From NCBI GenBank assembly GCA_021157845.1, contig JAGGVU010000003.1:1-32000 (forward strand): DNA of 32,000 nt, written 5' to 3'. This stretch comes from Candidatus Aenigmatarchaeota archaeon. GTDB taxonomy: Archaea > Aenigmatarchaeota > Aenigmatarchaeia > GW2011-AR5 > JAGGXF01. Numbering within the stretch: the first letter of the stretch is position 1; each line of letters begins with the position of its first letter. The notes beneath the pieces were generated by a model, which worked only from the letters and a program-made list of their open reading frames with translations, was not told the DNA's origin and made no database searches. A program made the position numbers and the translations under genes. Below are positions 3,636 through 24,116 of the stretch, piece by piece.

Positions 3636-3808
3636 GCCGGGGTAGCTCAGATGAACTTTTCAAAAAAAGTTCAATCAAAATGCGAAGTTCAGAGAAATGG
3701 TAGAGCGCTACGCTCATAAGAATTTATGAGCTATGAACTGCCTTGTGCAGTAATGACAAAACGCTCTAGGAAACGTAGAGGTCGCGAGTTCGAAACTCGC
3801 CTCCGGCA
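3636..3808 (+). tRNA. tRNA-Met or Ile2 (anticodon CAT) with two introns
   Basis: Exons 3636-3651, 3698-3719 and 3774-3808 join into a 73-nt cloverleaf. Acceptor GCCGGGG/CTCCGGC (one G-U), D stem GCTC/GAGC, anticodon stem CTACG/CGTAG, loop CTCATAA (CAT at 3715-3717), T arm GCGAG-TTCGAAA-CTCGC, discriminator A. Introns are about 3652-3697 (D-loop, 46 nt) and about 3720-3773 (at or next to 37/38, 54 nt); boundaries are ambiguous by 1 nt. G1:C72 and the anticodon stem argue against an initiator tRNA. Confidence 0.85.
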
Positions 3809-5017: not shown

Positions 5018-5386
5018 ATGAATTTGAGAAATGTCATTATAATTGTTATTGTCCTGTTTGCGGCGCTATTTTTGGCTTCGTGGGCAATTGCTCCGAGCAG
5101 CGGATGCTATTCAATAGGTAGCTGCAAAGAATGCTGGAGATGGTATAGTGTGCCAAGGGCATGTGAAGGAAACGAAAGCTGTTACACAGACCCTTCTATA
5201 GAGCAGCATAATGCATTAGTGGATGTAATATCATGCGCATGCGATGAAGCTAAATCAAAAAATTATGCAGACGCAGTATTAAATAGTGAGATAGAAAAGC
5301 TTTACTCTAGTGTGATGTCAGGGTATTCAGGAACAGTTAATGAGATATGTGAAGGTCGGGTTCCTCTTTCCAAGTGGAAATATTAA
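5018..5386 (+). CDS. Cysteine-rich secreted or membrane-anchored hypothetical protein
   Basis: 122 aa. N-terminal hydrophobic helix (VIIIVIVLFAALFLASWAI) followed by 8 Cys residues in the predicted extracytoplasmic part. Confidence 0.55.
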   Translation: MNLRNVIIIVIVLFAALFLASWAIAPSSGCYSIGSCKECWRWYSVPRACEGNESCYTDPSIEQHNALVDVISCACDEAKSKNYADAVLNSEIEKLYSSVMSGYSGTVNEICEGRVPLSKWKY

Positions 5387-5792: not shown

Positions 5793-6725
5793 ATGTCCTT
5801 TGAATTAGAATCGCTGCTAAAAGAATCAAACTCTATAATAGATTTAGAACAGAAACTTGAAGAAAACGGCCACAGCTTTAAAAATTTAAAGGACTACCTA
5901 AATTTCTTAAACAAAGAGTGGAGGAAAATCTCATGGAACAATATTGATGAAATATTAAAGTCTCCAGTAGCTGATAAAGATTTTCCGTCACTAAGGGTTG
6001 ACGACAAAGAAGTTTCTTACTATATTCACGGCTTAGTTCATGGGTGGGATATAGTATCAGCGCCTGGATTTCATATGAGGAAAAAAACAAAAAAGCAAGT
6101 TATTGAAAAACTAAAGGAATTTCACAACCCTCGAGGAGGCGAAGATTATTTTTGCGAAGAAAGATTTGCCAGTCATTTCGATTTGCAAATATCTCATGAG
6201 CTAAAGGATATAACTAAGACTGCAAAGAAATTAAACAAAAATCCGGAAAAGATATTCTTATCAATTTCATCAAGCTTAGCAGGAATTGTAGCACTGCCCC
6301 TTCTTTTCAGTACCGCATATTTAATATCTAAAGCTATCAAAAAGCCAAACAGTGAAGCCGAATCTATTATTTTTATTAATCAGAAGGCGCTGACAGATAT
6401 AAGATATCAGGCAAAATCTGCTGAGTTGCAACTTGTGGTAGAATTGCCACAGCCATTTAATCTGGAGATAAAATATCTAAATCAAAAAGACTCTTGGTTT
6501 GATAAATTTATAAACTATGCTATGTTTGAACCAGATGCAGCAACAACACCGGAAAGATCATTATGGGCCGCGAAAGAGTTAAAATGGCGAGCAAGAATAA
6601 ATGCTTTAGACACGGTTCATTATATATGTGGTCTTGGCCATATTACAGAAGTAGCTTATTTTTTAAAACATCCGGATTATTCCTTTGAGGCATTGGAGCA
6701 ATACCGAATTTCGAGACATAGCTAA
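5793..6725 (+). CDS. Hypothetical protein with a central hydrophobic segment
   Basis: 310-aa ORF. Hydrophobic stretch IFLSISSSLAGIVALPLLFSTAYLI. No catalytic motif that I can name. Confidence 0.6.
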   Translation: MSFELESLLKESNSIIDLEQKLEENGHSFKNLKDYLNFLNKEWRKISWNNIDEILKSPVADKDFPSLRVDDKEVSYYIHGLVHGWDIVSAPGFHMRKKTKKQVIEKLKEFHNPRGGEDYFCEERFASHFDLQISHELKDITKTAKKLNKNPEKIFLSISSSLAGIVALPLLFSTAYLISKAIKKPNSEAESIIFINQKALTDIRYQAKSAELQLVVELPQPFNLEIKYLNQKDSWFDKFINYAMFEPDAATTPERSLWAAKELKWRARINALDTVHYICGLGHITEVAYFLKHPDYSFEALEQYRISRHS

Positions 6726-6766
6726 AGTTTTTATATGTTTTCTCGTCTAAATTTGTTATTATTAAT

Positions 6767-6961
6767 GCCTCGGTAGCTCAACTGGCAGAGCATCTGTTGA
6801 ACCTTTTTAGAAAAAAGCTTCAATGGAAAAAGAAAAGGTCCAGATGAAACTTGTAACTGACGAACTTTTAAAAGGTTCGATAAAAACTGATCTATTGATC
6901 GGCTTTGCCGAAATGAAAGCATGAGATCAGAAGGTTGGGGGTTCAACTCCCTCCCGAGGCT
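6767..6961 (+). tRNA. tRNA-Thr (anticodon TGT) with two introns
   Basis: Exons 6767-6796, 6849-6856 and 6927-6961 give a 73-nt cloverleaf. Acceptor GCCTCGG/CCGAGGC, D arm GCTC-AACTGGCA-GAGC, anticodon stem TCTGA/TCAGA, loop CTTGTAA, variable AGGTT, T arm GGGGG-TTCAACT-CCCTC, discriminator T (U73 is reported for archaeal tRNA-Thr). Introns are about 6797-6848 (inside the anticodon stem, about 30/31) and about 6857-6926 (at or next to 37/38). TATA-like tttttatat lies about 35 nt upstream and a T-run follows the 3' end. Confidence 0.8.
6799..6831 (+). repeat. Intron sequence module shared with tRNA-Gly intron 2
   Basis: gaacctttttagaaaaaagcttcAatgGaaaaa here versus gaacctttttagaaaaaagcttcGatgTaaaaa at 23966-23998: 31 of 33 nt identical. 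Confidence 0.9.
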
Positions 6962-7026
6962 TTTTCTTCTTCGGTTTTGTAACTGAAAAATACTTAAATT
7001 TAAAAAGGTTTGGACAACTAAATTCT

Positions 7027-7626
7027 ATGGTGATAAACATAGGAAAGAAAAGTGAAGATAAAAGAATAATTGAAGACTTAGAAACTAAAATATTAACTTC
7101 TTCAGGCATACCAAATTTAAAAAATGAACTAACTATAGTGAGAGATGGGAAAAAAATAGTTTATGTGGGTAAAGCAGAAAACTTACAGTTTCATATACAC
7201 ATAGGGTTCACAGGTTTATCTATTCTAGGACAAGCTAAGCTAGAAAAATATAATGTAAATGAAAAAAATTTATTAGGATTAAAGAAGAAAAAGAAAGTGT
7301 GGTCTTTTAAAACTCCCACATACTTAACTTTTATCTCTTTGCAGACTTTGGGTCAACATAGAGGAAACTTAGTTCGTAAAGAATTAACGGTGAACAGCAG
7401 TCAATATGATCAAATGATGATAGAAACGCGTTATTATGAAGAAGGTGGAGAACTGAAAACTTTGCAAATTGGTGGATACAAACAAGAGTTAGCACAAGTA
7501 GCTCTTAATGAAAAAGGGATAATATTAGACCCAAACCTTTTAGATAGTGTTTTTGAACCAATTGATAGAAAACTAATGGAAACCTATAAGAAAGTCTATG
7601 AGAAAATCTATGGGATGAAAATTTAA
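7027..7626 (+). CDS. Hypothetical protein
   Basis: 199-aa ORF directly downstream of tRNA-Thr. No recognisable family. Confidence 0.5.
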   Translation: MVINIGKKSEDKRIIEDLETKILTSSGIPNLKNELTIVRDGKKIVYVGKAENLQFHIHIGFTGLSILGQAKLEKYNVNEKNLLGLKKKKKVWSFKTPTYLTFISLQTLGQHRGNLVRKELTVNSSQYDQMMIETRYYEEGGELKTLQIGGYKQELAQVALNEKGIILDPNLLDSVFEPIDRKLMETYKKVYEKIYGMKI

Positions 7627-11434: not shown

Positions 11435-12376
11435 TTAGAATAAATCTTTCAGATATATTTTATATTTTCCAAGTCTTCCTCCAAAATTGACAGATGAAAC
11501 GCCAAGAACACCTCGTATATCTGAAACAGTTTCTATAACTTCTTTCATCGCAGTTTTTACCACATCTATATTTATCCCGTTTATTATGGTTTCAGGTATA
11601 GACGTAATGCCTTCTGGCACTTCTGAATCAGGTATTTTATTTCTTAGTGTCGGACAATATCGCTGGTTGGTGGTAGGGCCTATTGCTTTATACTCCTCAC
11701 CAAGCTTTGTTCCTTTATATTTTTCAGCCATGTCCGAGCCAAGCTTTGAGGCACCGCCACATATCTCAAACGGCGCAATTGCTCCCTCAACCTTTCTGAC
11801 AGCTTTTGTAACCTTTCTTGTCAACTCACCCTCAGAAAGTTCGTTATTACAGAAATATAAAATATCTCCCCCAGCTATACCCTTTCCCAGGCCAAGGCCA
11901 TTCTCTATGTAGAAATCTCCTCTAGCCAAAGGAATTTTTATCATCTCTCTTCCGTATTTTTTTACCAGTTCTTGGTGCCCGTCACCACAAAAACCGACAT
12001 TTTTCATTATATCATATTTTTTCTCACAATCTCTATTATAATCAAAAATAGCAGTTCCGAGCCTGATAAGTGTTCCCTGTCTGATTCTTTCACCTATTGT
12101 CAGTTTTTTGGATTTATGTCTTCTGTATATTTGAACCCGTACCCCCTCTCTGCCATCAGGTGTTTCCTCTTTACATAGGCGTTTCTCTATCCCTCCTTCT
12201 GTTCCTCCTATAACTAAAGCAGACGGCCTCGTTGTTTCTTGTGCAGCATTTATTAGAATAAGCGGATCGTTTGCAGTTATGTCAAATCTCACAAATTCTG
12301 TTTCAAACAGTTCAGAATAAGCATCAGCGTTGACCTCTAGGTCTCCAACATGAAAACTATTTTTAAATAATGACAT
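11435..12376 (-). CDS. ftr: Formylmethanofuran--tetrahydromethanopterin N-formyltransferase (Ftr) family
   Basis: 313 aa. Many segments match my recollection of methanogen Ftr: ETPDGREGV, FCGDGHQ, IKIPLARGDFYIE, GIAGGD, VEGAIAPF, GGASKLGS, RYCPT, VPEGI, INGI and the C-terminal NFGGRLGKYKIYLKDLF. Confidence 0.85.
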   Translation of the reverse strand: MSLFKNSFHVGDLEVNADAYSELFETEFVRFDITANDPLILINAAQETTRPSALVIGGTEGGIEKRLCKEETPDGREGVRVQIYRRHKSKKLTIGERIRQGTLIRLGTAIFDYNRDCEKKYDIMKNVGFCGDGHQELVKKYGREMIKIPLARGDFYIENGLGLGKGIAGGDILYFCNNELSEGELTRKVTKAVRKVEGAIAPFEICGGASKLGSDMAEKYKGTKLGEEYKAIGPTTNQRYCPTLRNKIPDSEVPEGITSIPETIINGINIDVVKTAMKEVIETVSDIRGVLGVSSVNFGGRLGKYKIYLKDLF

Positions 12377-23864: not shown

Positions 23865-24116
23865 GCGCGGGTAGTCTAGTGAACCTTTCTTTCAAAAAGA
23901 AAGTTTCAATCTAAAGAAACTTGAGAAAGGTTTGGAAAATCTGGTTAGGACCTTAGCCTTCCACCGAACCTTTTTAGAAAAAAGCTTCGATGTAAAAACC
24001 TGAAAGGTTTGTAAGAAAGCTAATGACCCGGGTTCAAACGAGCCCTTTCTCTTTATAAAGAGAAAGCCCTCGATGGGAAAGAGAAACATTAGGCTCTGAA
24101 AATCCCGGCCCGCGCA
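23865..24116 (+). tRNA. tRNA-Gly (anticodon TCC) with three introns
   Basis: Exons 23865-23880, 23941-23963, 24018-24038 and 24103-24116 join to GCGCGGGTAGTCTAGTCTGGTTAGGACCTTAGCCTTCCAAGCTAATGACCCGGGTTCAAATCCCGGCCCGCGCA (74 nt). Acceptor GCGCGGG/CCCGCGC, anticodon stem TTAGC/GCTAA, anticodon TCC at 23960-23962, T arm CCGGG-TTCAAAT-CCCGG. Introns are about 23881-23940 (D-loop), 23964-24017 (37/38) and 24039-24102 (T-loop); boundaries are ambiguous by 1-4 nt. Confidence 0.9.
23966..23998 (+). repeat. Intron sequence module shared with tRNA-Thr intron 1
   Basis: 31 of 33 nt identical to 6799-6831. Confidence 0.9.

Follow-up and report, generated by a model that had tools for sequence, protein, structure and literature searches.

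The stretch of DNA analysed here, which we call the window, is 32,000 nt long, archaeal and AT-rich (34% G+C). Its genes include those for the RFC small subunit, formylmethanofuran-H4MPT formyltransferase (Ftr), PTH2 and glycosyltransferases, and the presence of RFC small subunit, Ftr and PTH2 indicates that the host is archaeal. The Ftr gene (11435-12376, minus strand) lies in a genome whose closest relative in tRNA and intron sequence is a DPANN (Aenigmatarchaeota) MAG. On the plus strand at 6767-6961, sequence reading and comparison identify a tRNA-Thr(UGU) gene of three exons and two introns, flanked by a promoter-like element and a T-rich tract, both of which were read from the sequence:

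6730..6737, plus strand: TATA-box-like element TTTATATG, 30-37 nt upstream of tRNA nt 1, a putative archaeal promoter
6767..6796, plus strand: exon 1, tRNA nt 1-30, comprising the acceptor 5' strand, the D arm, nt 26 and anticodon-stem nt 27-30 (TCTG)
6797..6848, plus strand: intron 1, 52 nt, at the non-canonical position 30/31 inside the anticodon stem, with a strict hBHBh' motif
6849..6855, plus strand: micro-exon, 7 nt (ACTTGTA), nt 31-37, comprising the last stem base, C32, U33, the anticodon UGU and A37
6856..6925, plus strand: intron 2, 70 nt, at the canonical position 37/38, with a relaxed BHB
6926..6961, plus strand: exon 3, nt 38-73, comprising A38, the anticodon-stem 3' strand TCAGA, the variable loop, the T arm, the acceptor 3' strand and U73
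6962..6978, plus strand: T-rich tract TTTTCTTCTTCGGTTTT

Exon 1 (6767-6796) reads GCCTCGG-TA-GCTC-AACTGGCA-GAGC-A-TCTG, ACTTGTAA occupies 6849-6856, and 6927-6961 reads TCAGA-AGGTT-GGGGG-TTCAACT-CCCTC-CCGAGGC-T, ending in the discriminator U73 with no encoded CCA. The acceptor stem consists of 7 perfect bp and the T arm is present. Spliced in silico, the exons yield a 73-nt product that forms a perfect cloverleaf and is called as tRNA-Thr(UGU) by ARAGORN (score 120.9), with the anticodon loop CUUGUAA and a 5-nt variable loop (class I). Archaeal tRNA-Thr is recognized by an NGU anticodon, U73, G1-C72, C2-G71 and a class-I variable loop, and all of these features are present here, with UGU as the anticodon; since G1-C72, C2-G71, U73 and the UGU anticodon are mutually consistent, we count them in favour of a tRNA-Thr(UGU) identity. 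A sequence-only reading of the same DNA had proposed just such a gene, with two introns, at 6767-6961; its two halves lie where that reading placed them, with TCAGA at 6927 and U73 at the end, and the call on the spliced product agrees with its argument from the CTTGTAA loop and from a U73 that fits Thr. All three exons follow one another in order on the same strand, in a stretch of 195 nt, which is not the arrangement of a split or permuted tRNA gene, and the separate BHB introns at 30/31 and 37/38 make this a multiple-intron tRNA gene.

An A/T box similar to TTTATATG is found upstream of a tRNA-Gly gene in the same window and upstream of the homologous gene at locus L007, and TTTATATG is the putative promoter of tRNA-Thr; TTTTCTTCTTCGGTTTT is likely an archaeal transcription stop. 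Just downstream of the tRNA, TTGTAACTGAAAAATACTTAAA (6977-6998) repeats the junction of micro-exon and intron 2 (6851-6872) with 77% identity, including the exact 10-mer TTGTAACTGA, and TAAAAAGGTT (7001-7010) is complementary to the 5' arm of intron 1. These repeats at 6977-6998 and 7001-7010 may be a scar of duplication or recombination, or they may be due to chance.

Homologues were sought with the exon-1 sequence in one scan each of genome and metagenome collections, which gave three relevant loci: L007, in the Candidatus Aenigmatarchaeota MAG AUK066, the nearest homologue; L016, a contig of 96 kb from a metagenome and of the L007 type; and L018, which is nearly identical to the window (about 96% identity over 4 kb). 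DNA identical to the window is also found on several metagenome contigs. Exon 1 shows 100% identity in all three loci and the micro-exon ACTTGTA is unchanged across the window, L018, L007 and L016; nt 38-58 of the 3' exon are likewise identical to the window in L007 and L016. Comparison with related tRNA-Thr genes, one of the checks suggested by the sequence-only reading, also upholds its claim that one intron sits inside the anticodon stem, as both L007 and L016 carry introns at the window's 30/31 and 37/38 positions. Their introns are shorter (34-37 and 39 nt) and have different interiors, and intron 2 of the window is homologous at both ends to the 39-nt intron. We further observe a third intron in these two loci, at 59/60 and with a perfect hBHBh' motif (L007 2655-2981, 327 nt; L016 4610-4843, 234 nt); the interior of the L007 intron contains a 54-nt unit (GAATCGCAGGAGG...AAACCGACGA) repeated about 3 times in tandem.

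The sole neighbouring ORF shared between the lineages, at 5018-5386 of the window, encodes a protein that is about 36% identical, and a syntenic-locus search with this protein matched only the protein itself. Exons that stay identical next to a protein this divergent indicate that the lineages are far apart and that the exons are under selection. On this comparison of two independent lineages, L007 reads as a deeply diverged homologue whose exon identity reflects selection, and both Thr introns, being shared by the two, appear to be old. A further locus from another uncultured archaeon, L008 (minus strand, about 7210-7306), holds a tRNA-Thr(CGU) whose first 25 nt are the same and which has an insertion of ~13 nt at about nt 26-28, just before the anticodon stem, that looks like a mini BHB intron.

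With respect to the exact junctions, the window alone leaves intron 2 ambiguous, with the A at 6856 or that at 6926 interchangeable and the spliced product unchanged. The T that follows G30 in the window excludes position 31/32 for intron 1; in L007 and L016 a T follows ACTTGTA, so that A38 must come from the 3' exon, which excludes 38/39 for intron 2. Taken together, the two lineages fix the junctions at 30/31 and 37/38. The same gene and product with intron 2 at 38/39, that is, with an 8-nt micro-exon at 6849-6856 and an intron at 6857-6926, would give an identical spliced sequence on account of the interchangeable A6856 and A6926, but that placement (junction 6856/6927) has a central helix TTGT/ATGA with two G-U pairs and a C-C opposition in the flanking h pair, and with the T of L007 and L016 we regard it as improbable. 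The exon lengths of 30, 8 and 35 nt put forward in the sequence-only reading are thus right for exon 1, but homology makes the micro-exon 7 nt and exon 3 36 nt (6926-6961); its intron lengths of 52 and 70 nt are retained, with intron 2 shifted by one base, to 6856-6925 from 6857-6926.

The gene is hidden from default ARAGORN and from Rfam at the gathering threshold, neither of which reports a tRNA at the locus, because 129-130 nt of intervening DNA separate the tRNA-Thr halves. An Rfam E-value scan of 6700-7030 gave nothing above noise and matched neither a tRNA nor a C/D box family. Intron-aware prediction, again a check that had been proposed beforehand, does find a tRNA at exactly 6767-6961 when ARAGORN is run with introns allowed, though it is offered as Leu(GAG) or, with the intron constrained to 37/38, as Phe(GAA). 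These two are the only models returned by this off-the-shelf program (ARAGORN -i), and they would replace the two introns by a single long one of about 124 nt, leaving a 4-bp anticodon stem. Both products are 71 nt long and U73 fits neither; the Phe(GAA) model has C37 where a purine is needed, the Leu(GAG) model has a class-I variable loop and is missing the long variable arm, neither junction pair forms a BHB, and the loop sequences are not conserved in L007 and L016, where AAAGCC follows exon 1. A single-intron tRNA-Leu or tRNA-Phe is therefore barely credible at this locus.

We enumerated all anticodon arms that exons 1 and 3 can form, either directly or with a single internal piece between them (that is, two introns or fewer), requiring a 5-bp stem, Y32, U33 and R37. 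Of 45 possible arms, 0 arise from a single intron. The Thr(UGU) model (junctions 6796/6849 and 6855/6926) has the best overall score and is the sole model among the 45 with a strict BHB at the first intron, so that the better alternative splice model that the sequence-only reading had named as a way to overturn its proposal did not turn up. Other micro-exons, with the anticodons UCA (GCTTCAA), GAC (ACTGACG) and UUU (ACTTTTA), have no BHB and are not conserved.

Other types of element were considered within the introns and set aside. A box C/D sRNA, as in euryarchaeal pre-tRNA-Trp, has box C (RUGAUGA) followed 5' to 3' by box D (CUGA) with guide spacers of about 12 nt; in intron 2, CUGA comes first, right behind the micro-exon, and UGAWAG is close to the 3' end, so that the order is reversed and the spacing is wrong. 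Reading CUGA...UGAWAG as a K-turn was also rejected, as in L007 those bases form an ordinary imperfect 11-bp hairpin. Group I and II self-splicing introns are built around a ribozyme core that has conserved domains and spans several hundred nt, and the present introns are just 52 and 70 nt long, with no Rfam match. Two ORFs covering the gene, 6731..6946 and 6927..7109, exist as the sequence-only reading had stated, both on the minus strand. A 33-aa ORF on the plus strand (6823..6924), which lies wholly within the introns and micro-exon and is called as a gene in the JGI annotation of an identical contig (L001 4031-4132), is almost certainly spurious.

In archaeal introns of the bulge-helix-bulge (BHB) type, which are spliced by EndA, both junctions fall in 3-nt bulges on either side of a 4-bp helix, in the full hBHBh' form or in a relaxed HBh' or hBH form. 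The splice motifs of the two introns, BHB1 and BHB2, are built on the following strands:

6791..6794, plus strand: exon strand of the BHB1 central helix, CATC, tRNA nt 25-28, partner 6843-6846
6843..6846, plus strand: intron strand of the BHB1 central helix, GATG, after which comes the bulge AA^A with the 3' splice site
6850..6853, plus strand: exon strand of the BHB2 central helix, CTTG, nt 32-35, partner CATG at 6920-6923

BHB1 is a strict, textbook hBHBh' motif. Its central helix has 4 Watson-Crick pairs that are unchanged in 4/4 sequences, its 3-nt bulges (TG^T and AA^A) would be cut after the second base, its outer helix h has 3 bp (6788-6790 with 6850-6852) and its h' hairpin pairs 6798-6808 with 6832-6842 around one mismatch (2+8 bp). 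GATGAR is kept ahead of the micro-exon in L007 and L016. Between the window and these two loci, the h' helix of intron 1 shows 3 compensatory pair (double) changes, and 90% of cells are paired in the intron-1 helix register vs at most 54% in slid controls. BHB2 is relaxed, with a U33-U mismatch in CTTG/CATG (3/4 pairs), the anticodon stem serving as h and an h' of 2 bp; in 4/4 sequences 3/4 central pairs form and the U33 mismatch is present. Its pairing is register-specific (78% of cells paired vs at most 48% when the partner is slid), and a search for compensatory change in BHB2 across the window, L018, L007 and L016 found none. As expected of archaeal BHB introns, removal of both introns at the bulges, with one strict and one relaxed motif, restores a canonical 73-nt cloverleaf.

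When the 129-nt intervening DNA was dinucleotide-shuffled 20,000 times, a strict BHB ahead of a rule-valid 7-nt micro-exon arose 63 times (63/20,000), and in 4/20,000 it was joined by a second BHB no worse than the observed one, indicating that chance alone does not account for the tRNA-Thr motif.

All three tRNA genes in the 32-kb window are multi-intron, with 7 introns in total. The two besides tRNA-Thr are also hidden:

3636-3808, plus strand: tRNA-Met(CAU), 2 introns, spliced product of 72-73 nt with a perfect cloverleaf (ARAGORN 120.5)
23865-24116, plus strand: tRNA-Gly(UCC), 3 introns, spliced product of 74 nt with a perfect cloverleaf (ARAGORN 121.7)

The tRNA-Met gene, which default tools as well as ARAGORN -i missed, has a D-loop intron at about 15/16 (3651-3697) of HBh' type, with 3/4 pairs in the central helix, an h' of 8 bp and a junction ambiguous by 1-2 nt, and a second intron at the canonical 37/38 (3719-3772). 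The introns of tRNA-Gly lie at 15/16 (23880-23939), 37/38 (23964-24017) and 59/60 (24039-24102), the last with a perfect hBHBh'. Several of these introns are related. Nt 3-35 of Thr intron 1 are 94% identical over 33 nt to Gly intron 2 at 37/38 (23966-23998), and Thr intron 1 is significantly similar to the Met D-loop intron (z = 5.1, with 0/2000 shuffles as high). Over their full length, Gly introns 1 and 2 can be aligned with Thr intron 1 and with the Met D-loop intron, which supports the boundaries of Thr intron 1. Gly intron 3 shows weak similarity to the 59/60 intron of L007 (36/1000 shuffles as high).

The intron family (6797-6848, 3651-3697, 23880-23939 and 23964-24017), spread over three tRNA positions, has the pattern TGAACCTTTT(T)..AAAAAAGYTTCRAT..AAAGGTYYR, and its single 5' arm, TGAACCTTTT, is complementary to two alternative 3' arms. 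Related introns at different positions of different tRNAs look like the result of BHB-intron transposition, as described in Thermoproteales. A 23-nt intron module, GAACCTTTTTAGAAAAAAGCTTC, has an exact match in two IMG/VR contigs (L021 2591-2613 and L022 3038-3060) that are giant-virus-like, with ankyrin, RING finger and 2OG oxygenase genes; the match lies in an AT-rich intergenic hairpin and is probably due to chance, roughly 0.02 such matches being expected by our own estimate.

In the cell, the gene would probably be transcribed from the A/T-box promoter to the oligo-T stop, giving a pre-tRNA of about 200 nt. Along the established archaeal tRNA splicing pathway (PMC3239211, PMC4090602), the splicing endonuclease EndA would then cleave both 3-nt bulges of each BHB, and the exons would be sealed by an RtcB-type ligase; no EndA or RtcB gene was found in the 32-kb window. 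BHB1 needs nt 25-28, with nt 22-24 and 32-34 for its h, and BHB2 needs nt 27-31 and 32-35, and because of these overlapping nt the two motifs cannot coexist, so that splicing must be sequential. Closely spaced archaeal introns are known for which one must go before the next BHB can form (PMC8450103). BHB1 would also compete with the D stem and the anticodon stem. We infer that intron 1 (30/31) most likely leaves first, after which the anticodon stem would close and present the 37/38 intron; the micro-exon would stay covalently joined to one neighbour at each step. The expected product is a standard 73-nt tRNA with the anticodon loop CUUGUAA, to which CCA would be added post-transcriptionally.

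On the BHB folding that the sequence-only reading had suggested as a check, BHB1 is strict and BHB2 relaxed by motif; minimum-energy folding at 37, 60 and 75 C never returned the BHBs. For the window pre-tRNA, the most stable computed structure (-63 kcal/mol) contains the helices 6795-6807/6870-6882 and 6887-6893/6924-6930, by which the splice sites are masked; conformers that form the BHBs are less stable than this by about 9-25 kcal/mol. Both alternative helices are absent from L007 and L016, and we therefore treat the folding result as a caveat rather than as support for another model; the helices seem to derive from a local duplication of the intron's 3' arm. Separately, we note that the bases after the micro-exon (CUGA at 6857-6860 in the window; UCUGAU at 2594-2599 in L007, and also in L016) repeat the 5' strand of the anticodon stem, and that in both lineages they can pair with the 3' strand (A)UCAGA (6924-6931 in the window). 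A second copy of this stem repeat, CUGAUCU, lies at 6887-6893 in the window. The repeat could represent a competing fold or a trace of the intron's origin.

The minimum-energy fold without BHBs is one of three observations that would suit a decayed or disrupted pseudogene, a former tRNA-Thr broken by inserted DNA from which no tRNA is made; the others are that standard finders miss the locus and that intron 2 holds an apparent degenerate copy of the 3' arm of intron 1. Such decay is hard to reconcile with all 73 exon positions forming a flawless cloverleaf, with exons identical to those of a lineage whose neighbour protein is only ~36% identical while the intron interiors have diverged, or with splice motifs that are kept and show compensatory changes. 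The tRNA-Met and tRNA-Gly genes nearby also share the same architecture, and we consider a pseudogene very improbable. On this evidence, 6767-6961 is very probably a functional archaeal tRNA-Thr(UGU) gene interrupted by two BHB introns.

The finding leaves knowledge of how tRNA splicing works unchanged, and its interest is moderate, lying in the host lineage, in the age of the two introns and in the hint of a lineage-wide burst of related introns. It adds an Aenigmatarchaeota-like archaeon to the hosts of multi-intron tRNAs whose introns are related and apparently transposed. A practical consequence is that, without intron-aware, iterative searches, such genomes will appear to be missing tRNA-Thr(UGU), tRNA-Met and tRNA-Gly(UCC); the tRNA sets of DPANN and Asgard archaea have been noted as looking incomplete (PMC5829648). 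We hold more tentatively, at somewhat less than even chances, that the window derives from an Aenigmatarchaeota-related (DPANN) lineage where the spread of BHB introns was independent of that in Thermoproteales. If this were true genome-wide, its tRNA set would be among the most intron-dense known, and it would offer a second, independent system for studying BHB intron movement.

For nearly two decades, tRNA genes interrupted by as many as three BHB introns have been known from archaea, and current intron-aware software (tRNAscan-SE 2.0) was built for multi-intron tRNAs (PMC8450103). Multiple-intron genes occur in Thermoproteales and other TACK archaea, according to the work of Sugahara et al. 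(2007/2008) as reviewed in PMC4033280, and PMC8450103, and related introns at different positions in different tRNAs have been read there as intron transposition (PMC4033280, PMC4090602). The window shares with these archaea both close-set introns and related introns in different tRNAs. Its host, however, is no crenarchaeon, the nearest homologue being in a Candidatus Aenigmatarchaeota (DPANN) MAG; the introns exceed the usual length of the BHB type, at 52-70 nt in the window tRNA-Thr and 234-327 nt for those at 59/60 in L007 and L016, and the intron family of the window differs in having two alternative 3' arms for one 5' arm.

A further known case is ARMAN-2, whose tRNA-Pro(GGG) has introns at 53/54 and 59/60 that leave a 6-nt internal exon (PMC3239211). 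The sequence-only reading had called an 8-nt internal exon extreme, but this precedent is smaller still, and the exon described here is 7 nt. ARMAN-2 is a DPANN archaeon and, like the window tRNA-Thr, its gene has two BHB introns a few nt apart around a tiny internal exon, and its 59/60 site is that of the third intron in L007 and L016 and in the window tRNA-Gly. The tiny exon of ARMAN-2 lies in the T-loop, whereas the present micro-exon supplies the anticodon loop and last stem base (nt 31-37) and carries the anticodon; ARMAN introns are also short, at 13-25 nt, compared with 52 and 70 nt in the window tRNA-Thr.

A two-intron tRNA-Thr from another uncultured archaeon is found in Caldiarchaeum subterraneum, in which the isoacceptor (GGU) and the intron positions (24/25 and 45/46) differ from those in the window, and in which the locus shows population heterogeneity (PMC3293823). 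Intron gain in Caldiarchaeum has been linked to an integrated mobile element with a recombinase (PMC3293823); no mobile element or recombinase adjoins the window tRNA-Thr. The tri-split tRNA-Gly of Caldivirga maquilingensis (Fujishima 2009, as cited in PMC4033280) resembles the window tRNA-Thr in that three pieces are joined at BHB motifs, but the Caldivirga pieces are separate genes, whereas those of the window are colinear in 195 nt and would be spliced in cis from one transcript. The tRNA-Thr(UGU) gene belongs to an already known class, the multi-intron archaeal tRNAs, of which DPANN examples have been described.
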